Positions 20,901-60,898 of a stretch of 64,000 nt of DNA are shown piece after piece. Position 1 is the first letter of the stretch. Each line of letters starts with the position of its first letter. Made by a program: the position numbers and the translations under genes. The notes below the pieces were generated by a model. The model worked only from the letters and a program-made list of their open reading frames with translations, did no database searches and was not told where the DNA came from. This stretch comes from Pristiophorus japonicus (Eukaryota). Location: positions 47,864,001-47,928,000 of the forward strand of contig NC_091999.1 in NCBI RefSeq assembly GCF_044704955.1. Direction: 5' to 3'.

Positions 20901-20999
20901 ACTATCAGTACCCCTCTCTCCCGAAATGTATCGCTGCCTTCTGTATGCCTTCTTTATGTTGTCTTCTGTATTCTGACAGCACCTAAACTGAGCAGGTAG

Positions 21000-22210
21000 C
21001 ATTAACCCTGTACTTCGACAACACCATCTCACTTCGGGTTGCTTTCTGATATCCCCCACTCTCTCCTTGTATGTTGATGGTCCTATGGGTCAGGGGCAAA
21101 TCTAAGTTGGTTATTGGGTGTTCTCGGGTTGGGGCGGTGGTGGCAGTGGTACCAGTGGTGCTGGTACCTGTCTGAGCATGTCCATCAGATCTTCCCTGGT
21201 TAATGGTATTCCCTTCTTTGCCTGTTTGTGGTCTCGCCATCCAGCGCCTTCCTCATAACTCCAGCAATCTTTGGCCAAATGTCCAAGTTTACCACAATTT
21301 TGACATGTCCCTTTAGAATTGCTGTAACGTCTGCTTTTCTGCAGGCAATCCCTACTGAAGTTACCTTCCTGATTGCAGTTTAAACATATCAGTGGAGCTG
21401 CGCGGGAGTGTGTCTCTTCCTCCTTCGTCTCTGCTGCTAACGCTGTTGCTGCTATTTTTGCTCATTTTTCCCTTGTTCTAACTTTAACCACTCTACATGT
21501 TCTGCCCATTCCAAAGTTTTATCATAATCATCTCCTGTCTTAAATACTCACTTAATTATCTTTTGATGTGCCTTTCCTAGTCCATCCTTAAACATTTTCA
21601 AGAATGCTGCATCATTTCTGTTGCGGTCATCAGCCCCAGAGTGGTTTTTGTATTCAATCCACTTTCGTTCCCCGTACTCCCCAACCCTTTTCCCTGCCTT
21701 TTGAGTCACAGTATTCTACTCCAGTCTTTTGTCAGAGTTCTGTATCTCTACTATTTTGCTTTAGCGGGTGGTAACTTATTCAATAGAATTTGTCTCCTGT
21801 GGGCTGAGGGGCACCTCCTGTATGGCAATGTGGGCTGCTCTACATCCGCTGGAGCGAATGGTGGTCGTGCGTATCCGTGCCACTGATAAATAGCCATTAT
21901 CATGTGCCGGGGCCACCTCTACTCCAAACTCATTATCCCTGTCTGATTGACTGTTAGGTTGGGGTTGTGGACTGCACTTACCCACCTTGGGGTACATTAT
22001 CTCTATTACCGTAGGTGATGGTGCTATGGCTGTGCTCTGCGCTATCTATCTGATCCTGTCTTTTTCTCTGCCAGCTTATTTATCTTAGCTTCTAACTCTT
22101 GAATTTGATGTGTTTAAATATCTAAATGTCCTCTGTAGCAGGTGATTATTATTACATAGGCTTTCTTCGTTTTGTTTTCATTCTGAATATCCCCACATTT
22201 CTTCTGTCTG
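21000..22210 (-). pseudogene. gag: ERV B gag remnant
   Basis: Coiled-coil QIQELEAKINKLAEKK (~22060-22115) and zinc knuckle CQNCGKLGHLAKDC (~21265-21306). Confidence 0.82.
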
Positions 22211-31400: not shown

Positions 31401-34400
31401 ACGGACACTCTGCCTTTTTTCCAGCGAGTAGAAGAAGGGGGAGTCGCGGTCCAGATCCCGCAGGAACCGGATCCGTGACCTCACGAACGCGCCTCGGGAC
31501 CCGACGAGCTGCAGGTCATTTAGCGGGGCCTTCTTCGCTTCGTACACCGTCCGCAGGGCCGGGTCCCCGACGACTTGACCGAGATGGGCTTCCAGGTCGA
31601 GCACCTCTTTTTCTAGACGCCCGACCCTGGCCGCCCGCCTCTTGGTCGAATCCCTCGCGTACTCTTGATAGAAGACGCGGACGTGAGCCTTGCCCACGTC
31701 CCACCATAGCCTCAAGGAGGGGAAGCCCCCCTGCCTCCTTCTCCAGTCGGACCAGAAACGACGGAACGAGTCCTGGAACCGCACGTCCTCCAGCAGCTGG
31801 TTGTTAAAGTGCCAGTACGCGGACCCCGTCCTCGCGCGGAGCGAAGCGAGCTCCGCCCACACCAAGTGGTGGTCCGAACACGGCACCAGCCGCATGGAGG
31901 CCGCCGGGACACAGGAAACGTACCCCCGAGACACGTAAAGGCGGTCGACTGTGGACCATCCAACTCCAAGCCTCACCCAAGTAAAGGCGCTGGGGTCGGG
32001 GTGGAGATTTCGCCAGACGTCCACCAAGTCGAAGGACCCGACCAGGTCCCACAACTTCTCCATCGCCGTCATGCACTGCGGGGCACCGGAGCCGTCCCTC
32101 GCCTCGAGGGTGCAGTTAAAATCCCCCCCGAGGACAATGCAGTCGCCGACGTCGACGGAGCCAAGAAGAGCGGACACCTCTTCGAAGAAGCGCGTTTGCT
32201 GCGGGCCGGGCTGAGGGGCGTACACGTTCACGAGATGGAGCGGCACGTCCCCCAGGCGAACCGTTACGTGCAGCAAGCGGCCTGGCATGGGCTCCTCGAC
32301 CCCCAAGATCTCCGGCTGAAAATGCGGGGCCAGCAAGATGGCCACCCCACTAGAAGTGGCAGTGAGGTGGCTCATCAGGACCTCTCCTTGCCATTCCAGG
32401 AGCCACGTGGCTTCGTCTCCCGGAAAGGTGTGGGTTTCTTGCAGGAAGCACACCGCATATTTCCCCTCCCGCAGGAGCGAAAAATTGTTAAATCTACGGC
32501 GTGCCTCTCTGCTGCCGTTGATGTTGAGGCTGGCTATGGTTATCTTCATGACAAAAGCATAGTGCAACCTCGACCTAACCTATTGTGGCGGGGGGAGTGG
32601 AGTCGTTTGTTGACCTCCACTCCTTCAGCAGCCCAGCGAGGAACCTTTTGAGCCGGCGCAGCTCAAGGCCTTGCGCCTTTAGTAAGGGCCCGCCCGCGGC
32701 CATGGTTTTAGTGGCGGTGCGGACGGAAGCGATGAGCAGCCCCAGCTCGGATCATCTTTCCCGGGCCAGATGGGTTTGGTTGCGGCGACCCTGGCTCTGG
32801 ACCAAAAAGTCCCGGAGTTCCTCTACGGGAATGACGGGGGAATCAGCGGCGGTCACGAGGAGATCCACCGCCTCACTGGCGATGGACTCGAGATCTTCAC
32901 CCGCGTCCCCCACCGAGTCCCCGTCCTCCTCCGGGAGGTCGCCGTCAGCAGCCGGCCCGTCGACCGCACGAGGTACGGCAAACGGCCCGGCCGCTCCATC
33001 TGGCCCCGGCTCTGCCCCGATCCCACCCCCAGGATCGTCGGCAGAGGAGTCCCCACTGGGCTCTTGTAAAATTGGTACTGGGTCGGGAAGCGACAGCGGA
33101 AGGGGTTCCTCCTCCGCCCCAGGAACCGGGGAACACGGAGAGACCTGGTCAAAGTAATGTTCCAGGTCCACCAAGTACCCCAGCTCCAAAGTAGGTGGCG
33201 AAGGTTGTTGTTCTTCCCCCTCCCCGCCGCCACCCCCCCGGCCCAGCGTGTACAGAATCGTTAAAATTAATCCATTTTCAGTTTCTTCCGGGCCGAGCGA
33301 CTCTAGGGGGCAGATAATTAATAGCTGGGCGGGCTCAGGTTCGGCCTGTTCGGCCCCGGCTGCCTCAGTCCCGGGCACGCTCGACCCGGCGGCTACGCAT
33401 TCCACCGCTGGCCCCACGCCCCCCACGACAGGCAGATCATTCACGCCATCCCCGGGAGGCAGAGGCCGGGCAGCCTCGACTGCCTCACCCTCCCCGGGTA
33501 CAGATTCCTCGCGCCTACAGCGCAATTTGGGGGCTCTGGTGGGGGACGCGGGACACGCGGCGGGCACCGACTCCTCCGCGGAGGGATGTTGTTCCCCCTC
33601 CGCCTCATTGGAGCCGCACCTCCTTTTGTTCCTGGGAGGGCGTGGAGGCAGGGAGACCTTCATGTCTGCCGAGGCCTCCCGCTCCACCCCCGCCTTTTTC
33701 TTTTCTTGCCCGCGCCCGAGCGCCTCTGTGATACTGGTCAAGGGCTCGGGCACGGGCTCAGGGCACCCCGCGCTCGCCGGTGACGGGGTTGGCCCGAGCG
33801 CGGTAAACAGATTGTCTGGCGCACTGAGGGGTCCCGCCTCTAGATGTTTCGTCTTCTTCCGTGCCTTCTTTCCGCTCGGACGCTCTCCCTCCCCCCCGCC
33901 GGAGGCCGTGAAAACAAAGGCCTCCGACGATTCCCGCGCACCTACGGCTCCCGGCACGTGGACGCTACTCGGGGGAGGGGTGGCGGCGGCACCAGCCTTT
34001 GCCGCCTTCGGTGGTTTGGCGGCTTTGGAGGCGGGGCAGTTCTTGCGAACGTGCCCCACCTCCCTGCAGGCATGGCACCGCACGCCGTCCGACGTCCAGA
34101 AGACGCGGTAGGCAGTCCCCTCGTGCACCACATTAAAATAGCCCTCCGTCGTCTCCTCCCGCGCCAGCCGGACAAAGAGCTGATGGCGGAAGGAGAACAC
34201 ATGGCGCAGGCTGTTCTCCCTGAGGCCGAGCGGTATGGGGTTGATCCCCGGCCTTACCTCCCCCAGTTGGTGTAGGTGAGGAAGGAGGAGCTCAGCGGCA
34301 ACAAAGGGCGGGACGTTTGAAATGATGACCCTCTGCGCGGTGGCCTCGAGAGGATGCACCGGCAGGAACGTCCCGCCCACCGTGAGCCCCTTTTCAATGG

Positions 34401-35620
34401 CCAGGGACACCGCTCGCTCTGACCCCAGGAAGAACACGGCCTTCCCAGACATCTTGGAGGCTGCAACAATGGCCGAGTGGCCGACTACCCCAGCCATCGC
34501 CCGCACGCACTGCTCGATGCTCATTGTGGGGTGAGTGTAGCTCTTGACCCCGTGTTTCTTGGCTATAAGTCTGAATGGTGGCAGGGCAGCAGGAGGCACA
34601 GGAGGTGCCGTGGAAGCGGTTGCCACCTGCGCATATGTCCTCGCTGGCCCTGCCACCGGCGTGGATGGGGTCGCCATCACAGGGTCCCTTTAAGGCCTAC
34701 ACCCACCCCAAAGTCACAGGCCTTAATGGTCTTAAATGGCCTCGTTTAAGTATTTGAACAGAGGGAGCTCTGAAAGAGGCACACCTCTGCCCTAGTTGGC
34801 AATTGGGGAGGGGCCTTGCTCCCTCTGCTCAGTTGTCTTAATTGTTCTTGTCTTTTTTTCCCAATTGGGAGGAAAGGCTCTCAGAGAGAGAGGGGAGAGA
34901 CAGAGAAAGAGTGAAAGAGCCAGGCGACGTGGAAAAGAGGGAAGCTGCGAGGGCTGGTCTCCCCTCACAGCGATGGGTGGGTGCACTCCCCAGATGTCAA
35001 ACAAAACAGTCTTTGGGGTGGTCTTCGGGTGGGTGGAGAAGATGTCTTCACCTGGGACAGCTGGAGCCACACAGGTACACACTCCCAACGATGTTATTCA
35101 GGGTGATTGAGTTTCTTCAGCCAGGTAGCTCCAGCTATCCCAGGCTAGGCAATGGTGGAGGGGTGCTTCAGTGGTGTGTGGGCCTAGCTGTAGGCAAGAC
35201 CCCCACACACACTTCAACACACACACACACACACACACACACACCCCGCGATGTTCCGGCCCTCAATTGGTCTTCTTTCCTCCCCCCAACCGATAAAACA
35301 AAGTCTTTTTGGGGAATGCACCAAAACACACCCACCTCTGGTTGAAGAAGTCTTTCCCTCCTTCCACACTGGTAAGTTGTTGTTCTTTTTTTTTCCCCTC
35401 TCTCGAACTCTTCGTAGGAATAATAATGGTGTTGCAGTCTTCTGCTCTCCTCCTCTCACTCTGGATAAATGGTAATGAAGCTCCTTCCTTCCTCCTCCTA
35501 TTCCTGGTCTGTTCTCAGGGCTCAGTCAAGGCATCCCAGACAGGAGCAAAGCAGGGAGTTCCTTCTCTCTCAGCAGCACAGCTCCAAGTGAAGAGGCCAC
35601 GCCTCCAAAGCTCCACCATT
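28476..35620 (-). mobile_element. Tx1-clade non-LTR retrotransposon copy 1 (full length, ~7.1 kb)
   Basis: ~940-bp 5' UTR; ORF1 from 34677 with CHACREVGHVRKNC knuckle; ORF2 32549-28655 with APE endonuclease (IASLNING, GGDFN, SDH), RT (SLDQEKAFD, QGCPMS, YADD) and C-terminal CNFCG..ESVFHVFIEC; frameshifted. Confidence 0.93.
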
Positions 35621-35637
35621 GGTCTTTGTGCATCAAA

Positions 35638-38600
35638 CTCTTTTAGGAGTAAACAAAATAATTAAACCGTGCCCCCCGATCTGTGGGAAACACCAACATT
35701 TACAAGTCCCTTTTTTAAATTTTTTTTTTTTTTGGGGCACAGAATCAAATTTTTTTTCCAAGTGCCCCCTATAAAAGGGAAGGGGGACACTAAAAGCACC
35801 GGCAATTAAAACAAATTAACTTAAAAATATAAAATCAAGTTAAAATTTGGTTGCCGGGCGTGACGATGCACTCCAGTCCCTCTGGTGCCCACCTCTCGCG
35901 GAAGACCGCAAGCGTACCGGTGGACACCGCGTGCTCCATCTCCAAGGACACCCTGGACCGGATGTATGCGCAGAAGAGAGGCAGGAAGTATGGCTGAACG
36001 AACCCCTCGACCGCCTGCTGCCTGGACCGGCTGATGGCCCCCTTGGCCGTGCCCAGGAGCAGTCCTACGAGAAGGCCCTCGGACCTACCCGCTCCCCTCC
36101 GCACAGGGTGCCAGAAGATCAGGCGTGTGGGACTAAAGTGCAGCCAGAATTTCAGGAGCAGCCCCTTTAAATTACAGAACAGGGGCTGCAACCACGTGCA
36201 CTCAATAAAAACATGGAACACGGACTCTTCCAGACCGCAGAAATTACAGGCGGCCTGGGAGCGCGTGAACCGGCTTAAAAATTTATTGCACGGCACTGCT
36301 CCGTGCACCACCCTCCAGGCCAAGTCCCCGACAAATAGTGGGAGGACCCCTGCGTAGAGTGCCCTCCATCGAGGACCCCCGCCTCCTCCGCACGGCAAGA
36401 TGGTACGCCATGGCGTGTAAGGACAGCAGGCGAGGATGACAAAGTTGAGAGTGTGCAGGAGCAGCCCGTACAGGAAACCCCTCTGCGTGGAACTGAAAGG
36501 CATGGAGGGGATTTCCCCGAGGCGGCTCAAGTTGTGAGGCGCCGGCCCCCGAGGGAGGTTCCGGGGTTTGGCGCCGATGAGGAATTCCGTCTGGACGGGG
36601 GTCAGTTCGGACGGGATCTCCCCACGTGCTTGAGCCTCCTCGATGCACCTAAAGGAGTCGGGGCCCAGAGCTGTTTTTAGCGACTCGATGGCATCGGCCG
36701 CGTGGCGGACATTGGCAGAATTTAGGCGCCGCGCCAGCGTGTCTGGCGCCATCCAGCCCGCTCCTCCGCCATCGAGCAGGTCACTGACCCTGGTCACCTC
36801 ACCAGCCACAGCCCTCTCGTCCGACCGCCACCTAAAACCTCGGCCGTGGAGGTACGGATTCCCGAGCAGCGGCTCCTGCAGGACGGCCGCCACTCCAGCC
36901 GGCGGAGAGCTGCGCTTGGTGGAGACTTTGTTCCAGACCCTGATGAGTTCCTTGTAAAAGACAGGCAGCTCCCGGCGGGCTGTCCTGACGCCCCCCACAC
37001 TCACAAACAGGAGCTGCGTGTCGTAGTTGAGGCTGTGCTACTCGCGGAAGAAATACCTCGCCAGAGCACACCACCTAGGAGGGGGCTCGACGTAAAGGTA
37101 TCTCTTCAGGGTCTGAAGATGGAAATTCGCAAGCTGGGCGCTGACGCACACCAACGACTGACCGCCCTCCTCAAGCGGGAGACTCAAGACCGCGGCAGAG
37201 ACCCAGTGCTTCCTGTTGTTCCAGAAGAAGTCCACCAGCTTCTTCTGTATCTTGGTGGCAAACGCAGGGGAAGGGGTCAAAGTGACCAGCAGGTACCACA
37301 GCATTGCGGCCACCAGCTGGTTTATGACTAGCGCTCGACCCCTGTAGGGCAGCACTCGGAGCAGTCCTGTCCAGCGCCCTAGGCGAGCGGCGACCTTGGC
37401 CTCCAGCTCCTGCCAGTTCGCCGGCCAGGCTCCCTCGTCGGGGCGAAGGTAGTCTCCCCGGTAGAGGAGATGGGTCGTGCTCCAGGCAAAAGGCCTGAGC
37501 TCCTCCGGCAGGGAGTCCACCCGCCACTGACCCACCAGGAACCAGGAATATTTCTCCCAGTTGATTCTGGCGGAGGATGCAGCCGAGTAAATCTCTTGGC
37601 ACTCACGCATCCTCCGCAGGTCAGCGGGATCCTCTACCGCGAGGAGCACGTCATCGGCGTAAGCCGAGAGGACGACTTCCACGCCCGGCCCTTGCAGAGC
37701 CAGTCCCGTCAACCTCGTCCGCAAGAGGCGCAGGAAAGGCTCCACGCAGACGGCGTATAAATGGCCAGACATGGGGCATCCCTGGATCACCCCTCTCCTA
37801 AAGCGAAGGGGCGCCGTCAAGGACCCGTTAACCTTAATCACACACTCCACGGCGGCGTACAAAAGTCGGATCCGGGCGACGAAATGCGTCCCGAAGCCGA
37901 AAGCGCGCAGAGTTCCGAGCAGATAGTCGTGATCCACCCTGTCGAACGCCTTCTCTTGGTCGAGGGATAGGAAGGCGACCGTCAGACCAGCCTCCTGGAA
38001 ATGATGGATGAGGTCCCGGACCAGATGGATGTTAGCGTGGATTGTCCGGCCCGGGACCGTGCAGGACTGGTCGGGGTGGATCATGTGGTCCAGCACGGCA
38101 CCAAGGCGAGCAGACATCGCCCTGGCAAAGATTTTGTAGTCCGTGCTGAGGAGGGAGACCGGGCGCCAGTTTTTAAGGAGGCGGAGATCGCCCTTCTTAG
38201 GCAGCAGGACGATGACTGCCCTGCGCCAAGAGAGGGGCATCTCCCCGGTCGCCAGACTTTCCCCCAGGACCCGCGCGTAGTCGCTCCCCAGGACGTCCCA
38301 GAACGCCCTGTGGAACTCCACGGTCTGCCCGTCCAGCCCCGGGGATATTCCCCTCGAGAGCCGGTCGAGGGCACCGGTCAGCTCCGCCAGGCTTAGCGGA
38401 GCTTCCAGATTTTCGGCGCCCTCCGGGCTGACCTTCGGCAGGTCCTCCCACAAAACTCTATGCACTTCCTCGCTGGACGGATCCGGAGAGAACAGAGCCC
38501 CGTAATATTCACGGGCCATGTTGTTGACGCCCTCCGGATCCGAGATAGAGAGCCGTCGTCGGCCAGCAGCGTCAAGCGCTGCTTACCGACACCCTCTCTT

Positions 38601-41600
38601 TTTTCCAGCGAGTAGAAGAAAGGCGGAGTCACGGTCCAGATCCCGCAGGAACCGGATCCGCGACCTCACGAACGCGCCTCGGGACCCGACGAGCTGCAGA
38701 TCCTTCAGCGCGGCCGTCTTCGCTTCGTACACCATCCGCAGGGCCGGGTCCTGGAAGACTTGACCGAGACGGGCTCCAGTTCGAGCACCTCTTTTTCCAG
38801 GCGCCCGACCCTGGCCGCCCGCCTCTTGGTCGAGCCGCTCGCGTATTCTTGACAGAAGACGCGGACGTGAGCCTTGCCCACGTCCCACCATAGCCTCAAG
38901 GAGGGGAAGCCACCCTGCTTCCTTCTCCTGTCGGCCCAGAAACGTCCTCCAGCAGCTGGTTGATAAAATACCACTATGCGGACCCCGTTCTCGTGCGGAG
39001 CGAAGCGAGCTCCGCCCAGACCAGGTGGTGGTCCGAACATGGCACCGGCCGCATGGAGGCCGCCAGGACGCAGGAAACGTCTGCCCGAGACACGTAAACG
39101 CGGTCGACTGTGGACCATCCTACTCCAGGCCTCACCCAAGTAAAGGCGCTGGAGTCGGGATGGAGATTTCGCCAGACGTCCACCAAGTCGAAGGACCCGA
39201 CCAGGTCCCTCAACTTCTCCATCACCGTCATGCTCTGCGGGGCACTGGAGCGGTCCATCGCCTCGAGGGTGCAGTTAAAATCCCCCCCCCCCGAGGATAA
39301 TGCAGTCGCCGACGTCGACGGAGCCAAGAAGAGCGAACACTTCTTCGAAGAAGCGCACTTGCTGCGGGCCGGGCTGACGGGCGTACACGTTCACGAGATG
39401 GAGTGGCACGTCCCCCAGGCGAACCTTTACGTGCAGCAAGCGGCCTGGAACGAGATCCTCGACCCCCAAGATCTCCGGCTGAAAATGCGGGGCCAACAAG
39501 ATGGCCACCCCACTAGAAGTGGTAGTGATGTGCCTCATGCGGACCTCTCCTTGCCATTCCAGGAGCCACGTGGCTTCATCTCCCGGAACGGTGTAGGTTT
39601 CTTGCAGGAAGCACACCGCATATTTCCCCTCCCGCATGAGCGAAAAATTGTCAAATCTACGGCGTGCCTCTCTGCCGCCGTTGATGTTGAGGCTGGCTAT
39701 GGTTATCTTCATGACTAGAGCATAGTGCAACCTCTACCTAACCTATTGTGGGAGGGGGAGTGGAGTCGTTTGTTGACCTCCACTCCTTCAGCAGCCCAGC
39801 GAGGAACTTTTGGAGCCGGCTCATCTCAAAGCCTTGAGCCTTTGATAAGGGCCCACCCGCGGCCATGGTTTTAGTGGCGGCGTGGACGGAAGCGATGAGC
39901 AACACCGGCTCAGACCATCTTTCCAGGGCCAGTCAGGTTTGGTCGCGGCGACCCCGGCACTGGACCAAAAAGTCCCAGAGTTCTTTTGCAGGAATGAGGA
40001 GGGTCTCAGCGGCGGCCGCGAGCAGAACCACCTCCTCACAGGCGATGCACTCGAGATCTTCACCCGCGGCCCCCACCGAGTCCCCGTCCCCCTCCGGGAG
40101 GTTGCCAATAGCAGCCGGCCCGTCGACCGCACTAGATACGGCAAACGGCCCGGCCGCTCCATCTGGCCCTGGCTCTGTTCCGATCCCACCCCCAGAATCG
40201 TCAGCAGAGGTGTCCCCACTGGGCTCTTCTAAAATTGGTGCTGGGTCGGGAAGCTTCAGCGGAAGGGGTTCCTCCTCCGCCCCAGGATCCGGGGAACATG
40301 GAGAGACCTGGTTTAGGAAATTCTCCAGGTCCATCAAGTCCCTCAGCTCCAAAGTAGGGGGCGAGCTTTGTTGTTCTTCCCCCTCCCCACCGCCAACCCC
40401 GGCCCAGCGTGTGGATGTATATTACAGTTGTCTGCAGTGTCAGTTTCTGCCGAGTCGAGCAAATCCCGGGGGAAGTTGGGTATTGGCTGAGCGGGCTCTG
40501 GTTTGGCCTTTTCGGCCCCGCCCGCCTCAGTCCCCGAGACGCTCGATCCAGCGGCTACACATTCTTCCGCTGGCCCCACGCCCCCCACGACAGGCAGATC
40601 TTTCACGCCATCCCCGGGAGGCAGCGGCTGGGCAGCCTCGAATGTCTCACCCTCCCCGGGGACAGACTCCTCTCGCCTACAGCGCAGCTTGGGGGCGCTG
40701 GTGGGGGACGCGGGACACGCGGCGGGCACCGACTTCTCCACGGAGGGATGTTGTTCCCCCTCCGCCTCATTGGAGCGGCGCCTCCTTTTGTTCCTGGGAG
40801 TGAGCGGAGGCAAGGAGACCCCCATGTCTGCCGAGGCCTCCTGCTCCACTCCCCCCTTTTCCTTATCATGCCCGCGCCCGAACACCTCTGCGGTATTGAT
40901 CGAGGGCTCGGGCACGGGCTCAGGGCACCCCGCGCTCGCCGGTGACGGGGTTGGGCTGAGCGTGATAAACAGATTGTCTGGCGCACCGAAGGGACCCGCC
41001 TCGAGATGTTTCGTCTTCTTCCGCGCCTTCCTTCCGGCCGGACGCTCTCCCTCCCCCCCGCCGGAGGCCCTGAAAACAAAGGCCCCCGACGATGCCCGCG
41101 CACCGACGGCTTCCGGCACGCGAATGCAACTAGGGGGAGGGGTGGTGGCGGCGCCAGCCTTGGCCGCCTTCGGTGGTTTGGCGGCTTTGGAGGCGGGGCA
41201 GTTCTTGCGAACGTGTCCCACCTCCCTACAGGCATGGCAACGCACGCCGTCCGACGTCCAGAAGACGCGGTAGGCAGTCCCCTCATGCCCCACATTAAAA
41301 TTGCCCTCTGTTGTCTCCTCCCGCGGCAGCCGGACAAAGAGCTGGCGGCGGAAGGAGATCACATGGCGCAGGCTGTTCTCCCTGAGGCCGAGCGGTATGG
41401 GGTTGATCCCCGACCTTACCTCCCCCAGTTGGTGTAGGTGAGGGAGGAGTAGCTCAGCGGGAACAAAGGGCGGGACGTTCGATAGAATGACCCTCTGCGC
41501 GGTGGCCTCGAGAGGGTCTACCGGCAGAAACGTCCTGCCCACCGTGAGCCCCTTTTCGACGGCCAGGGACACCGCCCGCTCCGACCCCAGGAAGAACACG

Positions 41601-42753
41601 GCCTTCCCAGACATCTTGGAGGCTGCGACAATGGTCGAGGTGCCGACTACCCCAGCCATCGCACGCACGCACTGCTCGATGCTCATTGTGGGGTGAGTGT
41701 AGCTCTTGACCCCGTGTTTTTTAGTTATCAGTCTGAATGGTGGCAGGCAGCAGGAGACGCAGGAGGTGCCGTGGAAGCGCTTGCCACCTGCGCATATGGC
41801 CTAGCTGGCCCTGCCACCGGCGTGGATGCGGTCGCCTTCACGGGGTCCCTTTAACGGCTACACCCACCCCAAAGTCACAGGCCTTAATGGTCTTAAATGG
41901 CCTCGTTTAAATATTTGAAGAGAGGGAGCTCTGAAAGAGGCACACCTCTCCCCTAGTTGGCAATTGGGGAGTGGCCTTGCTCCCTCTGCTCAGTTGTCTT
42001 AATTGTTTGTTTTTTTTTAATTAGGAGGAAAGGGCTCTCAGAGAGAGAGGGGAGAGACAGAGCGAGATAGATAGAGGAAGAGGGGGGATGGGAAAGAGGG
42101 AAGCTGCGAGCGCAGGTCTCCCCTCACAGCAGTGGGTGGGTGCACTCCCAGATGTCAAACAAAAGAGTCTTTGGGGTGGTCTTCGGGTGGGTGGAGAAGA
42201 TGTCTTCACCTGGGGCAGCTGGAGCCACACAGTTACACACTCCCAACCATGTTAATTAGGGTGATTGACTTTCTTCAGCCTGGTAGCTCCAGCTATCCCA
42301 GGCTAGGAAATGGGGGAGGGGTGCTTCAGTGGAGTGTGGGCCTAGCTGTAGGCAAGACCCCCACACACACTTCCACACACACACACACACCCTCCGCGAT
42401 GTTCCGGCCCTCGATAGGTCTTCTTTCCTCCCCCCACCGATACAACAAAGTCTATTGGGGAATGCACCAAAACACACCCACATCTGGTTGAAGAAGTCTT
42501 TCCCTCCTTCCACACAGTTGTTTTTTCCCCCTTTCTCCAAATCTTTGTAGAATTAATCAAGTTGTTGCAGTCTTCTGCTCTCCTCCTATCCCTCTGGAAG
42601 AATGGTAATATAGCCCCTTCCTTCCTCCTCCTATTCCTGGGCTGGTCTCAGGGCTCACTCAAGGCCTCCCAGACAGGAGCAAAGCAGGGAGTTCCTTCTC
42701 TCTCAGCAGCACAGCTCCAAGTGAATAGGCCACGCCTCCAAAGCGCCACCATT
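35638..42753 (-). mobile_element. Tx1-clade retrotransposon copy 2 (full length, multiple frameshifts)
   Basis: Same architecture; ORF1 pieces 39821-41686, ORF2 pieces 39712-35835. Confidence 0.93.
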
Positions 42754-42769
42754 GTTCCTTGTGCATAAA

Positions 42770-45700
42770 CTCCTTTAGGAGTAAACAAAAAACATTAAAC
42801 CGTGCCCCCGATCTGGGGGAAACGCCAACATTTACAATGTCCTTTTTTTTTTGGGCACAGAATTGAATTTTTATCCAAGTGCCCCCTACAAAAGGGGAGG
42901 GGGACACGAAAAGCACCGGCAATTAAACACCTAAAGTCAAATTAAAACTTGGTTGCCGGGCGTGATGATGCACTCCAGTCCCTCCGGTGCCCACCTCTCG
43001 TGGAAGGCCGCGAGCGTACCGGTGGACACCGCGTGCTCCATCTCCAAGGACAGCTTGGACTGGATGTAAGAGCGGAAGAGAGGCAGGCAGTCTGGCTGAA
43101 CGACCCCCACGACCGCCCGCTGCCTGGACCGGCTGATGGCTCCCTTGGCCGTGCCCAGGAGCCGTCCAACGAGGAGGCCCTCGGACCAACCCGCTCCCCT
43201 CCGCACAGGGTGCCCGAAGATCAGGAGTGTGGGACTGAAGTGCAGCCAGAATTTCAGGAGCAGCCCCTTTAAATAACAAAACAGGGACTGCAAACTCGTG
43301 CACTCAATAAAAACATGGAACACGGACTCTTTTAGACCGCAGAAATTGAAGGCGGCCTGGGAGTCCGTGAACCGGCTTAATAATTTATTGCACGGGACTG
43401 CTCCGTGCACCACCCTCCAGGCCAAGTCCCCGATAAATACTGGGAGGACGCCTGCGTAGAGTGCCCTCCATCGGTGACCCGCGCCTCTTCCGGACGGCAA
43501 GATGGTACGCCATGGCGTGTCCGGACGGCAGGCGAGGTTGGCAAAGTTGAGAGTGTGCAGGAGCAGCCCGTACAGGAAACCCCTCCGCGCGGAACTGAAA
43601 GGCACGGAGGGGATTTCCCCGAGGCGGCTCCAGTTGTGAGGCGCCGGCCCCCGAGGGAGGTTCCGGGGTTTGGCGCCAATGAGGAATTCTGTCCGGACGG
43701 GGGTCAGTTCGGACGGGATCTCCCCACGTGCTTGAGCCTCCTCGATGCACCAAACGGAGTCGGGGACCAGAGCTCTTTTTAGCGACTCGATGGCATCGGC
43801 CGCATTGCGGACGTTGGCAGAATTTAGGCGCCGTGCCAGCGTGTCTGGCGCCATCCAGCCCGCTCCTCCGCCATCGAGCAGGTCCCTGACTCTGGTCACC
43901 TCACCAGCCACAGCCCTCTCATCCGACCGCCACAAAAAACCTCGGCCGTGGAGTTACGGATTCCCGAGCAGCGGCTCCTGCAGGACGGCCGCCACTCCAG
44001 CCGGTGCAGAGCTGGGATTGCTGGAGACTTTGTTCCAGACCCTGATGAGTTCCTTGTAAAAGACAGGCAGCTCCCGGAGGGCGGTCCTGACGCCCCCACA
44101 CTCACAAACAGGAGCTGCGTGTTGTTGTTGAGGCCGTGCTGCTGGCGAAATAAATACATTGCCAGAGCAGGCCACCTAGGAGGAGGCTCGACGTAAAGAT
44201 ATCTCTGCAGGGTCTGAAGATGGAAAGTCGCGAGCTGGGCGCTGACGCACAACAACGACTGACCACCCTACCCAAGCGGGAGACTCAAGACCGCGGCAGA
44301 GACCCAGTGCTTCCTGTTGTTCCAGAAGAAGTCCACCAGCTTCTTCTGTATCTTGGCGACAAACGCAGGGGGAGGGCTCAAAGTGACCAGCCGGTACCAC
44401 AACATGGCTGCCACCAGCTGGTTTATGACTAGCGCTCGACCCCTGTAGGACAGCACTCGGAGCAGTCCTGTCCAGCGGCCTAGGCGAGCGGCGACCTTGG
44501 CCTCCAGCTCCTGCCAGTTCGCCACCCACACTTCCTCGTCGGGGCTAAGGTAGACTTCCAGATAGAGGAGATGGGTCGTGCTCCAGGCAAAAAGCCTGAG
44601 CTCCTCCGGCAGGGAGTCCACCCGCCACTGACCCACCAGGAGTCCGGAACATTTCTCCCAATTGATTCTGGCGGAGGACGCGGTCGAATAAATCTCCTGG
44701 CACTCACACATCCTCCGCAGGTCAGCGGGATCCTCTACCGCGAGGAGCACGTCATCGGCGTAAGCCGAGAGGACGACTTCCACGCCCGGCCCTTGCAGAG
44801 CCAGTCCCGTCAACCTCGTCCGCAAGAGGCGCAGGAAAGGCTCCACCGCATATTTCCCCTCCCGCAGGAGCGAAAAATTGTCAAATCTACGGCGTGCCCC
44901 TCTGCCGCCGTTGATGTTGAGGCTGGCTATGGTTATCTTCATGACTAGAGCATAGTGCAACCTCTACCTAACCTATTGTGGGGGGGGAGTGGAGTCGTTT
45001 GTTGACCTCCACTCCTTCAGCAGCCCAGCGAGGAACTTTTTGTAGCCGGCGCAGCTCAAGGCATTGCGCCTTTGATAAGGGCCCGCCCGCGGCCATGCTT
45101 TTAGCTGCGGTGCGGACGGAAGCGACGAGCAACACTGGCTCAGACCATCTTTCCCGGGCCAGACGTGCTTGGTCGCGGCGACCCCGGCACTGGACCAAAA
45201 AGTCCCGGAGTTCCTTTACAGGAATGAGGAGGGTCTCAGCGGCGGCCGCGAGCAGATCCACCGCCTCACTGGCGATGGTCTCTAGATCTTCTCCTGCGTC
45301 CCCCACCGAGTCTCCGTCCCCCTCCGGGAGGTCGCCGCCAGCAGCCGGCCCATCGACCGCACGAGATACGGCAAACGGCCCGGCCGCTCCATCTGGCCCT
45401 GGCTCTGCCCAGATCCCACCCCCACGATCGTCGGCAGAGGAGTCCCCACTGAGCATTTTTAAAAGTGGTGCTGGGTCGGGAAGCGACAGCGGAAGGGGTT
45501 CCTCCTCCGCCCCAGGAGCCGGGGAACACGGAGAGACCTGGTTGAGGAAATTCTCCAGGTCCACCAAGTATCCCAGCTCCAAAGTAGGGGGTGAGGGTTG
45601 TTGTTCTTCCCCCTCCCCGCCGCCTCCCACCGGCCCAGCGTGTGGATGTATATTACAGTTGTCTGCAGTGTCAGCTTCTGCCGAGTCGAGCAAATCCCGG

Positions 45701-47956
45701 GGGAAGTTGGGTATTGGCTGGGCGGCCTCAGGTTCGGCCTTTTCGGCCTCGCCCGCCTCAGTCCCCGGGACGCTCGACCCGGCGGCTACCGATTCTTCCG
45801 CTGGCCCCACGCCCCCCACGACAGGCAGATCTTCCACATCATCCCCGGGAGGCAGCGGCTGGGCAGCCTCGACTGCCTCACCCTCCCCGGGGACAGATTC
45901 CTCACGCCTACAGCGCAGTTCGGGGGCGATGGTGGGGGACGCGGGACACGCGACGGGCACCGACTCCTCCGCGGAGGGATGTTGTTCTCCCTCCACCTCA
46001 TTGGAGCGGCGCCTCCTTTTTTTCCTGGGGGTGCGCGGAGGCAGGGAGACCCCCATGTCTGCCGAGGCCTCCCGCTCCACTCCCCCCTTTTTCTTGTCTT
46101 GCCCACGCCCGAACCCCTCGGTGATACTAGTCAAGGGCTCGGGCACGGGCTCAGGGCACCCCGCGCTCGCCGGTGACGGGGTTTGGCCGAGCGCGGTAAA
46201 CAAGTTGTTTGGCGCACCGAGGGGATGTTTCGCCTTCTTCCGCGCCTTCTTTCCGGCCGTGAAAACAAAGGCCCCCGATGATGCCCGCGCACCTATGGCT
46301 CCCGGCAAGTGGACGCTACTAGGGGGAGGGGTGGCGGCGGCGCCAGCCTTGGACGCCCTCGGTGGTTTGGCAGCCTTGTTGGCGGGGCAGTTCTTGCGAA
46401 CATGCCCCACCTCCCTACAGGCATGGCACCGCACGCCGTTCGACGTCCAGAAGACGCGGTAGGCAGTCCCCTCGTGCACCACATTAAAATAGCCCTCCGT
46501 CTTCTCCTCCCGCGCCAGCCGGACAAAGAGCTGGCGGCGGAAGGAGAACACATGGCAGAGGCTGGTCTCCCTGAGGCCGAGCGGTATGAGGTTGATCCCC
46601 GACCTTACCTCCCCCAGTTGGTGTAGGTGAGGGAGGAGGAGCTCAGCGGGAACAAAGGGCGGGACGTTTGAAATGATGACCCTCTGCGTGGTGACCTCGA
46701 GAGGGTCCACTGGCAGGAAAGTCCCGCCCACCGTGAGCCCCTTTTCAAGGGCCAGGGACACCGGTCGCTCCGACCCCAGGAAGAACACGGCCTTCCCAGA
46801 CATCTTGGAGGCTGCGACAATGGCCCAGGGGCCGACTACCCCAGCCATCGCCCGCGCGCACTCCTCAATGCTCATTGTGGGGTGAGTGTAGCCCTTGACC
46901 CCGTGTTTTTTAGTTATCAGTCTTAATGGTGGCAGGGCAACAGGAGGCGCAGGAGGCGCCGTGGATGTGGACGCCGCCTGCGCATAATTCCTAGCTGGCC
47001 CTGCCACCAGCGTGGATGGGGTCGCCATCACGGGGTCCCTTTAAGGGCGACATCCACCCCAAAGTCACAGGCCTTAATGGTCTTAACTGGCCTCGTTTAA
47101 GTTTTTAACAGCGGGAGCTCTGAAAGAGGCACTCCTCTCCCCTAGTTTGCAATTGGGGAGGGGCCTTGCTCCCTCTGCTCAGTTGTCTTAATTGTTCTTG
47201 TCTTTTTTTCCCAATTGGGAGGAAAGGCTCTCAGAGAGAGAGGGGGGAGACAGAGAGAGAGACAGAGTGATGGGGTGTGGGAAAGAGGGAGGCTGCAAGG
47301 GCAGGTCTCCCTTCACAGTAATGGGTGGGTGCACTCCACAGATGGCAAACAAAACAGTCTTTGGGGTGATCTTCGGCTGGGGGGAGAAGATGTCTTCACC
47401 TGGGGCAGCTGGAGCCACACAGGTATACACTCCCAACGATGTTAATTAGGGTGATTCAGTTTCTTCAGCCTGGTAGCTCCAGCTATCCCAGGCTAGGCAA
47501 TTGGGTGAGGGGTGTTCAGTGGTGTGTGGGCCTAGCTGTAGGCAAGACCCCCACACACACTTCCACACACACACCCCCCCCCCCCCCCGCGGTGTTCTGG
47601 CCCTCGATTGGTCTTCTTTCCTCCCCCCACCGATACAACAAAGTATTTTTGGTGAATGCACCAAAACACACCCACCTTTGGCTGAAGAAGTCTTTCCCTC
47701 CTTCCACACTGGTAAGTTGTTGTTCTTTTTTCCACCTCTTTCCAACTCTTTGTTGAAATAATGAAGGTGTTGCAGTCTTCTGCTCTCCTCCTCTCCCTCG
47801 AGATGAATGGTAATGAAGCCCCTTCCTACCTCCTGTTCCTGGGCTGGTCTCAGGGCTCACTCCAGGCCTTCCAGACAGAAGCTAAAGCAGGGAGTTCCTT
47901 CTCTCACAGCAGCCAGGCTCCAAGTGCATAGGCCACGCCTCCAAAGCTCCATCATT
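42770..47956 (-). mobile_element. Tx1-clade retrotransposon copy 3 (intact ORF1, ~1.9 kb internal ORF2 deletion)
   Basis: ORF1 open; ORF2 reads GKYAV|EPFLRLL, joining the EN start to mid-RT at 44844-44846. Confidence 0.93.
44968..47028 (-). CDS. Tx1 ORF1 protein (nucleic-acid binding, CCHC knuckle), open frame
   Basis: Uninterrupted ~686 aa; homologous to the frameshifted ORF1s of copies 1 and 2. Confidence 0.8.
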   Translation of the reverse strand: MATPSTLVAGPARNYAQAASTSTAPPAPPVALPPLRLITKKHGVKGYTHPTMSIEECARAMAGVVGPWAIVAASKMSGKAVFFLGSERPVSLALEKGLTVGGTFLPVDPLEVTTQRVIISNVPPFVPAELLLPHLHQLGEVRSGINLIPLGLRETSLCHVFSFRRQLFVRLAREEKTEGYFNVVHEGTAYRVFWTSNGVRCHACREVGHVRKNCPANKAAKPPRASKAGAAATPPPSSVHLPGAIGARASSGAFVFTAGKKARKKAKHPLGAPNNLFTALGQTPSPASAGCPEPVPEPLTSITEGFGRGQDKKKGGVEREASADMGVSLPPRTPRKKRRRRSNEVEGEQHPSAEESVPVACPASPTIAPELRCRREESVPGEGEAVEAAQPLPPGDDVEDLPVVGGVGPAEESVAAGSSVPGTEAGEAEKAEPEAAQPIPNFPRDLLDSAEADTADNCNIHPHAGPVGGGGEGEEQQPSPPTLELGYLVDLENFLNQVSPCSPAPGAEEEPLPLSLPDPAPLLKMLSGDSSADDRGGGIWAEPGPDGAAGPFAVSRAVDGPAAGGDLPEGDGDSVGDAGEDLETIASEAVDLLAAAAETLLIPVKELRDFLVQCRGRRDQARLARERWSEPVLLVASVRTAAKSMAAGGPLSKAQCLELRRLQKVPRWAAEGVEVNKRLHSPPTIG

Positions 47957-48861: not shown

Positions 48862-49222
48862 TGAAGGTGTCCATCAGAACAAGGAAAATGCTTTACCACT
48901 GGATTTATTGACGGTTCTGTTGGTGATTATCAAGGAGATCGCTTCATGTCCCACCACACAGGTGTGAGAGGCGTCGCTGGCCCATACCTCGGCTGCAATG
49001 GATAGCAGGCTGTACATGAAGAAGGAGCTGCTACCGTTCTCCGCCATCACCTCGGTGTTCTTGCAGTTGCGGGAATCCACCGGCTTGTCATTGACGGTCC
49101 ATTTGACGAAGATCTCTCGGGGGGAGAACCTCTCACTAAGCAGGTGAGGCTGACCAACCTCTGAGCAGAGACTTCTGCTGAGGGCAGGAGGACAGACACG
49201 GCTGGTTCCCGCGGATCTTTCG
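48862..49222 (-). pseudogene. IGHM: IgM CH4 exon (48897-49222) plus proximal secretory tail
   Basis: [53 protein letters not shown]; AG acceptor; frameshift; tail partly deleted. Confidence 0.93.
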
Positions 49223-50114: not shown

Positions 50115-50422
50115 CCTTTCCCTTGTGGATGGAATCTCTGAGAGCAGTCGGCATATCCTGATGGCTCACCACGCAGTAGAACTTATTCCCACTCAGCCAG
50201 TCTTGTGTCGAGATGTTTTAGTTGCTGATCACACTGTTGGGATCCTCTCCGGGTTGGACGGCAATCTCTGATTTCAAAGACTCGTTTTTTCGTGTCCAGG
50301 TCACGGTGAGCCCATAAGGAGCGTTAGACACGACGCACGTTAAGGTCACCGTCGCCTCCAGTAAAACCTGTTCCAGTGACGGTGGGCGAAGAGTGATTTT
50401 TAATCGCTGCATGGGACATCCA
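50115..50422 (-). pseudogene. IGHM: IgM CH3 exon
   Basis: [45 protein letters not shown]; AG/GT flanks; TAA at 50218-50220 and an early frameshift. Confidence 0.93.
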
Positions 50423-52394: not shown

Positions 52395-52715
52395 CCTAAG
52401 ATCTGCTGAAGTTACGGCTTTGTGTGCCCCCTTCATGAGTGACCTGGCAGGTGCAGACCGAGCCGGTGAACCATTCCCTGTCGGGGAGTGTCAGACGACT
52501 GGCCGTCAAAACGTTTCCGTTCATCTCAAAGGCGGGAGAGGTGATGAAGCCCGAATCCAGGAGTTGTCCACTCTTCAGCCAATTCACGGTCAGTGACTTT
52601 GGCCTTAATTCGATGATTGAACACATGGCGCTTACATATCTGCTGCAGATGATTTGTTCAGTGGAACTTAGCAAGAGGAGAACAATTGGAGGAACGATGA
52701 TCCGTTCAGGACGTT
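52395..52715 (-). pseudogene. IGHM: IgM CH2 exon
   Basis: PPIVLLLLSS..CSII..LTVNWLKSGQ..SGFITSP..SRLT..EWF..CQVTHEGGTQSRN; terminal TAG stop; acceptor appears mutated AG>TG. Confidence 0.92.
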
Positions 52716-53206: not shown

Positions 53207-53505
53207 CTGATATTGTGATGTTCCACAGCGACCCACCACGTCGAACTTCGCAGCAGATTGTGCTGCTCCCCACCTCGGACTCGGTGATGGTTAATTGGCT
53301 GCTCAGGGTGTTGGTTCAATTCTTTTTGAGCAATGACGGGTAGGTCTTCAATCCAGTCGTGGTCGGCTCTTTATCTTCCTTCCAGAAAAGGCTGATGATG
53401 TCAGGGGAGTCGTCCATCACCAAACAGCCCTACGTGATGGAGCCATCGGTGCTGGGCTGTTCACAGGAGGAGAGCAGGGCGCAGACGATGGGGGAGACGG
53501 TGTTA
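53207..53505 (-). pseudogene. IGHM: IgM CH1 exon
   Basis: [52 protein letters not shown], close to horn-shark mu CH1 as I recall it; two stops and a frameshift. Confidence 0.93.
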
Positions 53506-57900: not shown

Positions 57901-59959
57901 ATACTCCAGTTAGTCACAAAATGCCCGTAAGTTAATGATTAAATATATTCTGCTACTTCTTGAAAATAGTTTCCAGAATGGTCAGTGTAAAACTAGAGGA
58001 TAACAATTCATTCAGACCATCTGGGGCACTGAAACTGAATGAGCAAATGGAGGAGAGACATTGTTCATCAATTTAATATTAATAAGAATTAAACATAGCT
58101 CTCAGATATGATTTGTGCTTTGTCTACCGTTCTATTCCGCATACAGCAGCGTTTTGGGAGTTGAATTTTGTTTTAAATTCAAAATAAGATGAACCTTTTG
58201 TAAGTAAATTAATCTGCTTGAATTTCAATGGATTATTTGCTGTCTCCAGCCATACGCAGTCGGAACCTGCCTTGAATTTCAATATAATTACATGAACAAT
58301 TCTTTGACTGCCAGCGACGCCTGTCTTTCAGCTTTGGTTCTTGCAAAGTGTTCAAGATTAACTTAGTGATAATTCTATCAAACAACACACAATATTGATT
58401 CAATAACAAATTTCTGCTACACAGTGAGAATGTCATACCCCGGCAGATATATTAAATTGATAAAATGGAATTTGCAACACGGCTTTAAGTTATAATTAAT
58501 TGCACTCAGTCATTCATCTGTGTAAACAGGAGGTAGCAAGTAATTGAACTCCCGACTCAAACTGAACACAGCGGTGGAATCAGTATGTTGTTAATGAAAT
58601 AATTGCAGGCATAATTAATAACTGTATCCAGCCTCTAAAAGTTTCTGCTTGCCTTAATGGTGCCCAGTGTCGAGCAGGATTTTTGAAGGCGAATAATATT
58701 AAGTAAATGAACATTGGACTTATAGCATATTTGAATAACATTCAGAGATATTATTGCATTATAATCGGTTGGTTAATAGTAATTTAATCCAACTACAACC
58801 TGAATAAGTTAATTATGTAGATGGCAACTAGTTACATTTCACATATTAATATACCAGCATCGTCAACATTGATTAATAGTTGAATATATAATTATCACTT
58901 CAATAATTGTGATGTTAAAATACCTTTCAATAATTTCTGATGTCTAAACCCGTCCTGTTCTTTGCCTACCGACTGTTTTCAAACAGTTTCAAAATACATA
59001 TCGTGTTTGGATTCGATCAGAAACCTGCTGCTGTCACCGATATTAAACATTGTAGAAACGCCAAACAGTTTCACAAATTCTAGGTATTCTGAGTAACACA
59101 GGCACAAACTCTCCTCAGCAGATCAACACTAAATCACATCGCTGAGGGGCGGAATCCCTCGACAGAACCTTTCATGGAGCAGATCCGTAATTCTATAAAC
59201 CCTTTCAGCAGAATCAAATGTATCATTGCAAAAAATCTCATTACACAATCATCAAACCCGCCTAACACTGAAATAACGAAAGATTGAATTCAACAGAAAT
59301 ATAAAATACTGACAGAGAATTGTGATTGGACGGATCATGTTAAATACATTAATTTTGATATTATAGCGTATTTCAATAATAATCGGTGATATTACTACGT
59401 TATAATAATGTTAATTTAAATGTGTTCCAGCTGGAAATATGTTAATTTGTCAGTTCTTAATTACAACTCACGTATTGAATCTGATCATTCGGGAACATTC
59501 GGTCAGTAGATGACAATGTAATTTTCATGAAAAAACTTAAATGACCTTAAGGTTATTTACTGACCTCTAAGCTTTCTGTTTTGTGCCTACAATGTTCTTT
59601 TAAACACATTCAAACACAATGTTTGCATTCGATCAGAAAAACTCCAGCAATCAGAGGTCACCAAGATTAAACATTGCAGAAACGTCAAACAGTGTAATGA
59701 TCATAAGGTATTTAAAGTAACCTCGACACACAGTCTCGTCAGCAAATAAATACCAAATCACATCAGCAACATTTTCTGTGGAGAAACAGTTGAATTTTAT
59801 AATCACTTTGCAGCAGAATCACATTGATAATTGCAAAAAAATCTCAAAACAAAATCCACCGGACCCAAGTTTCAGTGAACGAAATAATTATTAAAATAAA
59901 CAGAAATATAAAATAAAGACACAAATACAAGTGTTACTGAATCAGTGAATGCTCCTTAC

Positions 59960-60009
59960 CTGCAGTCACCGTCACCATGGTCCCTTGTCCCCAGTAGCCA
60001 ATTGCGTAA
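59960..60009 (-). pseudogene. IGHJ: JH segment, apparently pre-joined to D2
   Basis: YAIGYWGQGTMVTVTA|GTAAG; preceded by a 12-spacer RSS rather than the 22/23-spacer RSS expected for JH. Confidence 0.9.
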
Positions 60010-60037
60010 CAGAGTGAGACACGTTGTGTCAAATACT
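60010..60037 (+). other. 12-bp-spacer RSS with mutated heptamer
   Basis: CAGAGTG + AGACACGTTGTG (12) + TCAAATACT. Confidence 0.7.
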
Positions 60038-60243
60038 CCGGCGGACTGTTAACTGTAAAATACAGAGATTAAATTCCACCCAGCTCTAAAAACCCGATTC
60101 CGACTATCGTAAGAGTGAATCAGCGAGATATTTCATTTTGTACCGTTCATTATATTTACAAAAATGATTGGAATACTTCTGAAGCATCTGTGCATGTTCA
60201 ACATGGCAATCAATAGTAATAAAGAAGAAAACTGTTATACATT

Positions 60244-60246
<3 letters not shown>

Positions 60247-60275
<29 letters not shown>
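60247..60275. repeat. (AT)n microsatellite
   Basis: ~14 AT units between the two RSSs. Confidence 0.95.
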
Positions 60276-60366
60276 ACTTATTTCTAATTATTTTTATTTA
60301 AGCCTCAGTTCCTTCGACGCTCCTGGCGTGGTAATGGTCGCAGGTTTGAGCAAACTCCCTGTCTGG

Positions 60367-60404
60367 GGTTTTTGTATGGAGAGCTCGCTCTGTATTGCAC
60401 CGTG
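60367..60404 (-). other. 22-bp-spacer RSS 3' of D1
   Basis: CACGGTG + 22 bp + ACAAAAACC (canonical nonamer). Confidence 0.92.
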
Positions 60405-60724
60405 ACCCACTCCCATAGTCCTTCCTTGCACAGTAATAGATGGCGGTGTCTTCGCTCCTCATGTTCTTCATGTCCAACGTGAAGATGTTGTTTGAAGTGT
60501 CTTTGGATGCAGTAAATCGGCTCTCAATCCCTGGGACGTTATTGTTGCTCGCTGGAGTGTAGTAGCAAACCAGCCAATCCAGCCCCTGTCCGGGAACCTG
60601 GCGGACCCAGTTCATACCATAGCCGCTAAGATCGAACCCGCTGGTTTACAGGTCAGTCTCAGGGAGCCTCAGGAAATCCTGGTCTTTGCCTCGGGCTGAG
60701 TCAACACCACATCCGACTGGACAC
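60405..60724 (-). pseudogene. IGHV: IgM VH exon fused to a D1-like segment
   Basis: [62 protein letters not shown] then GACTATGGGAGTGGGT and the RSS; one stop, one frameshift. Confidence 0.93.
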
Positions 60725-60852: not shown

Positions 60853-60898
60853 GGGAAAGTAAAGCCAGCAACAAAACGAAAGCAATCGCCGACCTCAT
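60853..60898 (-). pseudogene. VH leader exon
   Basis: 46 bp, MRSAIAFVLLLALLS + GTGAGT donor; 128-bp intron to the V exon. Confidence 0.92.

Follow-up and report, generated by a model that had tools for sequence, protein, structure and literature searches.

A cluster of IgM heavy chain segments near the end of a 64-kb stretch of DNA from Pristiophorus japonicus (called the window here, at its full length of 64,000 nucleotides) raises the question of whether its segments were joined in the germ line and, if so, how much recombination is left to be done. An earlier note, made from the letters alone, took it for a near-functional VD-DJ cluster, brought to within one recombination step of completion by two RAG events in the germ line. 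Comparison with the other IgM clusters of the genome upholds the inherited joints and leads to another end point: we are highly confident that the window holds an inherited, partly pre-joined IgM cluster, likely the outcome of two germ-cell RAG events, which is now a pseudogene present in 26 copies.

Layout of the cluster

From the leader exon to JH, the cluster comprises:

60853..60898, minus strand: leader exon MRSAIAFVLLLALLS, GT donor intact
60422..60724, minus strand: IgM VH exon, a pseudogene, 3' end fused to D1
60405..60421, minus strand: D1 at its full 17 nt, joined to V; length and start are those of the free D1 of paralogues
60367..60404, minus strand: D1 3' RSS with a 22-nt spacer, intact (CACGGTG / ACAAAAACC)
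60038..60366, no strand: former D1-D2 spacer, 329 bp, containing a (TA)n run
60010..60037, plus strand: 12-spacer RSS from the 5' side of D2, heptamer CAGAGTG, nonamer TCAAATACT
60008..60009, minus strand: two extra bases, TT, between heptamer and J, which may be D2 remnant, P or N bases
59960..60007, minus strand: JH, untrimmed, GT donor intact; 11 nt before TACTGG, like native J

On the minus strand, the V end TATTACTGTGCAAGGAA reads straight into D1 GGACTATGGGAGTGGGT (60421-60405) and the V RSS is absent, as the earlier note had seen; D1 merely starts one base earlier than was written there. The 22-RSS that it described after D1 is present (CACGGTG-22-ACAAAAACC, 60404-60367) and is the sole near-perfect 22/23-RSS in the 64-kb window, and 100 base shuffles did not produce any. 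Likewise, the 12-spacer signal (60037-60010), which had been placed about 330 bp further on, lies 329 bp past the 22-RSS and adjoins TTACGCAA-J. Leader, VH, D and JH are found within ~1-2 kb and are accompanied by their own Cmu1-4 and secretory tail, the organization of an elasmobranch IgM minicluster. The Cmu exons are located 6.5-11 kb downstream, give C1-set matches and are 87-94% identical to those of an intact cluster; we take the secretory tail and the domain order to be those of IgM, and the V family names are likewise our assumption. The J-C intron (~58950-59900) contains an internal duplicated stretch of ~350 bp with 68% identity, which is common across the V family. Elsewhere in the window, gag-pol fragments of LTR-type or retrovirus-like elements with stop codons are found at 18800-21500 on the minus strand (weak RVT_1 match, E 8e-4), and a piece of a 7TM receptor of the rhodopsin family, scoring below the Pfam cut-off and probably a pseudogene, at 8145-8708 on the same strand.

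IgM clusters of the genome

DNA searches of the genome, each scoring the best 40 of 75-90 candidates, yielded 104 loci corresponding to 79 distinct clusters. A J motif had 73 exact matches, all within these 79 clusters, six of which lack the motif. A Cmu4 motif had 79 matches, 25 of them, by reading of the coordinates, without a counted cluster. One of these 25 sites has a fully joined, in-frame VDJ upstream (L147), which brings the total to at least 80 clusters; at the other 24, V, D and J are all absent 7-17 kb upstream, and the nearer 7 kb, read for nine of the 24, holds C exons only. These 24 copies, found at 21 places on contig C23 (e.g. at 13.89, 25.93, 37.29 and 62.04 Mb) and on three small contigs, are likely orphan constant regions from partial duplications.

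The V family of the window accounts for 65 of the clusters found, 55 of them on C23, and falls into the following groups:

Group A: VD1-(12)TT-J, 26 copies, no open V; the group of the window
Group B: VD1-(12)J, nine copies (L030, L081, L083-L089; C23 and two small contigs), nine open V
Groups C and D: V-D1-(12)J, six and three copies, all with open V
Groups E to H: V plus a D-J joint, 20 copies
L147:3174-3543 on C1467: one in-frame VDJ of the main family, completely joined, which may be germline or somatic

Three group A copies differ by just 0.03-0.06%, and small contigs carry three of the 26; the true number may therefore be somewhat below 26. In L040-L046, L047-L049 and L051-L056, D1 and J are pre-joined as V-(12)DJ, and V is open in 15 of these 16 clusters.

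Neither a free D2 nor a 23-RSS on J is present in any of the 65 clusters found. A second, very divergent VH family (L060, L062-L074 and L078, on C27, C90, C3807 and others) comprises 15 Cmu-linked clusters, of which 12 are V-D1-D2-J, two V-DD-J and one V-(12)DJ; every cluster found with two free D segments belongs here. A 23-RSS-J pattern, for which the nonamer was loosened because the real one differs from the perfect nonamer, which matched nothing, had 31 matches; 12 of these are IgM J segments, all of the second family. Two further 23-RSS sites (C2:63993699 and C29:15537097) are followed by J-like sequence that is not of the IgM type and possibly represents T-cell receptor J segments. The V of the second family has what we take to be an IgW-like look, but assignment to IgW was rejected, as the constant exons of that family share 82-93% identity with Cmu of the C23 family and include the secretory tail and TM1. 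Since D2 is missing from the V family of the window, the second family, which is ~80% identical in the spacers, has to serve as outgroup.

The V-D1 joint

Free V segments end in GCAAG followed by GGAC(C), GTAC or GCAC, and the free D1 GGACTACAGCAGTGGGC of L027, L028 and L034-L039 is 17 nt long and starts with GGACT. The extended V end is not present in unrearranged paralogues; the comparison that the earlier note had proposed thus speaks for its reading, in that this end is not native. Set against the nine V-D1-(12)J paralogues, the window copy has lost the 23-RSS of V, the 12-RSS of D1 and the spacer between them. In L026, the most diverged group A copy, the joint reads GCAAG-GGA-GGACTA: V lacks 1-2 nt, D1 is whole and nothing has been added between them; the 25 other copies differ from it there by one G-to-A change. 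The joint has the same length in 25 of the 26 loci and is 1 nt shorter in L026. Trimmed ends and possible N nucleotides had been expected at both joints: V would indeed have been trimmed by 1-2 nt, whereas N nucleotides, judged from these alignments, are not needed at V-D1 and become superfluous once L026 is taken as the reference.

The sequenced tissue could have contributed B or T cells whose somatic joints entered the assembly, and VD-DJ is among the two-event somatic products that the available part of a study on nurse shark lymphocytes describes (PMC2435157). Group A copies, however, are 0-8.4% diverged from the window copy across 3.2 kb and form a clade of diverged loci that have the joint in common. 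The same V-D1 joint in 26 dispersed, diverged loci excludes a B-cell origin, and we regard somatic joints as having practically no chance of being the explanation; on the evidence of the assembled loci, the joints appear fixed in inherited DNA. Among the contigs listed from four runs of other organisms, no contig bridging the V-D1 joint was present.

The V-D1 joint of group B is a distinct one, made through a 4-nt GGAC overlap, and group B is separate from group A in the trees of V, of the J-C intron and of the spacer. The different joints and the separation in the trees indicate that V and D1 were joined at least twice independently.

The J-side joint and the loss of D2

The 12-RSS next to J had been interpreted as the mark of a D2-J joint. 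The 21 nt upstream of its heptamer match the 5' flank of D2 at 17-18 of 21 positions in four unrearranged clusters, while the match to the flank of J itself in the same four clusters is limited to 5-7 of 21-22 positions. Furthermore, the last 100 nt of the 329-bp spacer match unrearranged D1-D2 spacers in 79-81 of 101-102 columns. The 12-RSS of the 5' side of D2 has thus been retained, whereas the DNA from the 3' RSS of D2 to the 23-RSS of J has been deleted; in total, ~400 bp from D2 through the 23-RSS of J are missing. A 12-RSS native to J, which the earlier note had set against its own reading, was ruled out because the flank is that of D2. Nine paralogues with free V and free D1 (groups C and D) do carry the same 12-RSS on J, so that the signal goes back to the family as a whole, although it is a derived one.

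Little of D2 itself seems to have survived. J is untrimmed in 44 of 44 clusters that keep the D2-derived 12-RSS, and the gap between heptamer and J amounts to zero bases in 12 of them (groups B and D) and to TT or TA in the other 32, the window included. D2 starts with GTAC in this genome and with ATATAC in a relative, so that TT matches neither GT nor AT exactly and requires one substitution. As far as the letters tell, the D2 remnant on J comprises at most 2-4 nt. The D2 5' RSS on J agrees with the second joining event of the earlier note, but with nearly no D2 left, the 'DJ' of that note comes close to a J with a swapped signal.

Three mechanisms may account for this deletion. The first is a D2-J coding joint in which D2 was cut back to 2-4 nt, for which we see about even chances. 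D2 GTAC and J AC joined through their shared AC would give GT+ACG, one substitution away from the TT+ACG of the window. Retained 5' bases of D2 at other joints of the genome (GTACAG in L078, GTACA in L050 and, with an inferred assignment, GTACATTG in L040-L046) show that trimming of the 3' side of D2 does occur in germline joints. In a DNA run of a relative (X7), one contig links J to the D2 signal with ~6 more bases, which means that D2-J joints with a longer remnant exist, and resembles a coding joint of D2 and J.

The second is a RAG hybrid joint, in which the 12-RSS of the 5' side of D2 replaced the 23-RSS of J and D2 was wholly deleted, leaving a VD-J cluster; it is a serious possibility whose chances we put somewhat below even. 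It would explain why the heptamer meets J with zero bases in groups B and D and why J is untrimmed throughout. Both signals have the same orientation, in which the intervening DNA would be deleted, and the reciprocal product, D2 on the 23-RSS, would have been an excised circle that is gone from the genome. A germline hybrid joint with a 12/23 signal swap has also been proposed for clusters of the horned shark in the available part of PMC2193153. A hybrid joint fits less well with the two extra bases in the 32 other clusters, with the X7 contig, and with the single substitution by which a coding joint through AC would give TT+ACG.

The third, an ordinary repair deletion between identical CACTGTG heptamers ~400 bp apart, would do without RAG and account precisely for the absence of bases at the junction in groups B and D. 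Two nucleotides would have to have been inserted afterwards in 32 of 44 copies, however, and all other joints of the family are located at RSS boundaries with small trimming; we therefore consider it improbable. The two junction types (+0 and +2) map uncleanly on the spacer tree, which suggests exchange between clusters.

Run X15 carries the same species label and comes from another sample. One of its contigs (103 nt) spans J and the 12-RSS of L034 with eight differences, and another contains a leader spliced to a V of the window's family, 29 other bases and J; each observation is a single contig from a library of unrecorded type, compared with the intact cluster L034.

Decay of the window copy and its group

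Whether the cluster awaits a last recombination step depends on the state of its coding parts and signals. The VH exon is interrupted by a TGA at 60671-60669, in framework 1, and has lost one nucleotide from an A run shortly after it (60647-60645); the frame downstream still matches Pfam V-set with an E value of 2.4e-13. The constant exons are damaged as well:

53212..53503, minus strand: Cmu1, 1-nt deletion and two stop codons relative to an intact cluster
52396..52710, minus strand: Cmu2, the last of the compared codons is a stop; exon boundary putative
50116..50417, minus strand: Cmu3, 1-nt deletion and a stop codon relative to an intact cluster
48862..49220, minus strand: Cmu4 and secretory tail, deletions of 3, 1 and 13 nt

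The membrane exon TM1 is absent from the whole 64-kb window, so that the copy has neither the membrane exon nor the open reading frames of a functional gene. Three GC-rich copies of a non-LTR retrotransposon, with endonuclease and reverse transcriptase domains, lie one after another at 29100-46600, immediately downstream of Cmu4 and at the place expected for the membrane exon; they may be linked to its loss.

The 12-RSS heptamer is CAGAGTG in the window copy and CACAGTG in 34 of 44 comparable clusters, the lesion being a C>G change at 60012 that hits the third base of CAC. This trinucleotide is conserved as the cleavage motif of the RSS, according to the available part of PMC11281782. With a heptamer that begins with CAG, the 12/22 pair of the window copy, which the earlier note had called legal, is no longer a legal one, and the copy is likely unable to complete rearrangement. 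Even after recombination it would, on this reading of its exons, yield no antibody chain. Among the runs listed, none of RNA contained this stretch, a result that is neutral as to expression.

The earlier view of a live cluster, one legal 12/22 recombination away from an expressed heavy chain, draws on the intact 22-RSS, leader, J and splice sites of the window copy. It overlooked the broken V, Cmu1, Cmu2, Cmu3 and Cmu4 and the absent membrane exon; together with the CAG heptamer, the stop codon and frameshift in V and the lesions in four Cmu exons, these refute it for the window copy at the protein level and make it very unlikely overall. Instead of being frozen one recombination step from completion, the copy is a pseudogene whose heptamer has mutated. 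The description suits group B, in which V is open and both RSS heptamers are intact in all nine copies, the leader is intact in the five checked, and Cmu1-4 and TM1 are intact in the one checked. By sequence, group B thus qualifies as the real set of one-step clusters and matches the title of the earlier note better than the window copy does.

The decay extends to the whole of group A, in which V is open in 0 of 26 copies. A stop at Cmu1 codon 25 is common to the three copies checked (window, L019 and L026), which include the earliest branch, and TM1 is absent from all three. The broken V in 26 of 26 copies and the shared stop suggest that function was likely lost before the group expanded. 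The 12-RSS heptamer begins with CAG in 10 of the 26 copies, the window included, and the D1 heptamer with CAT in two further ones, while both heptamers start with CAC in 14; in groups B, C and D, both are kept in 18 of 18. Selection for the loss of the RSS was considered and ruled out: each of the 10 copies with CAG also has a second change ~11 nt away, and this complete linkage suggests that CAG arose once.

Proposed history

The two germline events of the earlier note correspond to the V-D1 joint and to the deletion that placed the 12-RSS of D2 on J; that RAG acted in germ cells is inferred from the position of the joints at RSS boundaries. In a first step, the ~400 bp from D2 to the 23-RSS of J would have been lost by one of the mechanisms discussed above, the deletion itself being visible in the alignments, giving V(23)-(12)D1(22)-(12)J, a configuration that persists in the nine open-V clusters of groups C and D. 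In a second step, V(23) would have been joined to (12)D1, presumably by RAG, with V trimmed by 1-2 nt, D1 by none and no N bases. This order is suggested by the clusters observed, among which V-D1-(12)J occurs and VD1-D2-J does not. In a third step, as the shared lesions indicate, function would have been lost, followed by segmental duplication along C23, and a later point change would have broken the 12-RSS heptamer in 10 of 26 copies, the window included. The trees of V, spacer and J-C intron conflict for several groups, and exchange between clusters would blur the order of events.

It is tempting to extend this history to the family as a whole: a germline hybrid joint might have moved the 12-RSS of D2 to J and made the whole main IgM family (65 of 65 found) single-D, later joints might have left most clusters one somatic step (VD-J twice and V-DJ several times), and the genome would hold a graded record of RAG activity in germ cells, with two-D diversity confined to the second, smaller V family. 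We regard this extension as tentative and rather doubtful. If the family-wide loss of D2 is true, the main IgM family should give shorter CDR3s that are one-D or pre-set.

Comparison with known systems

The window copy is a genuine germline arrangement, of a kind already known, and by itself matters little; the census of the family is more useful, with group B as the real one-step substrate. Partly germline-joined clusters have reportedly been described since 1988, by Kokubu in that year and also by Harding in 1990. As the earlier note had stated, such configurations in sharks and skates are in print: in their available parts, PMC2193153 gives germline 'V D1-D2J//C', 'V DD-J//C' and 'VDJ//C' IgH clusters for horned shark and little skate, and PMC5192425 gives 'VD-J, VD-DJ' germline layouts. 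Compared by description, the cluster of the window shares with these the IgM minicluster, the inherited joints and one remaining 12/22 pair. In contrast to them, the window copy is a pseudogene, with its heptamer broken and D2 down to 0-4 nt, and free D2 is missing from the whole V family (65 of 65 found). No report of a whole IgM family without free D2 was found in the literature searched, a weak negative, as primary heavy-chain papers and supplements lay outside its scope.

In the horned shark, as far as the available part of PMC2193153 goes, a segment has likewise gained an RSS of the other spacer class by a site-specific germline event; there it is an inversion between D1 and D2, whereas here a deletion gave J a 12-RSS. 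The NS4 (kappa) light-chain genes of the nurse shark, according to the accessible text of Lee et al. 2000 (PMC2193156), carry independent germline joints with little TdT activity. Like them, the clusters described here were joined in the germ line several times independently, starting from split genes, with little trimming and hardly any trace of TdT; unlike them, they are heavy-chain clusters with D segments, partial joints and an amplified dead copy. The same text notes that heavy-chain germline joints are hard to dissect, as joined and split genes have diverged too far; here, split, half-joined and joined clusters that are close relatives stand side by side, which makes trimming, short overlaps and the lack of N bases readable. 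Finally, the nurse shark IgM1gj is also a germline-rearranged IgM heavy chain; according to the available parts of PMC5192425 and PMC4279169, its segments are all joined, Cmu2 is lacking and neonates express it, whereas the cluster of the window is a dead one with four Cmu exons and partial joints.
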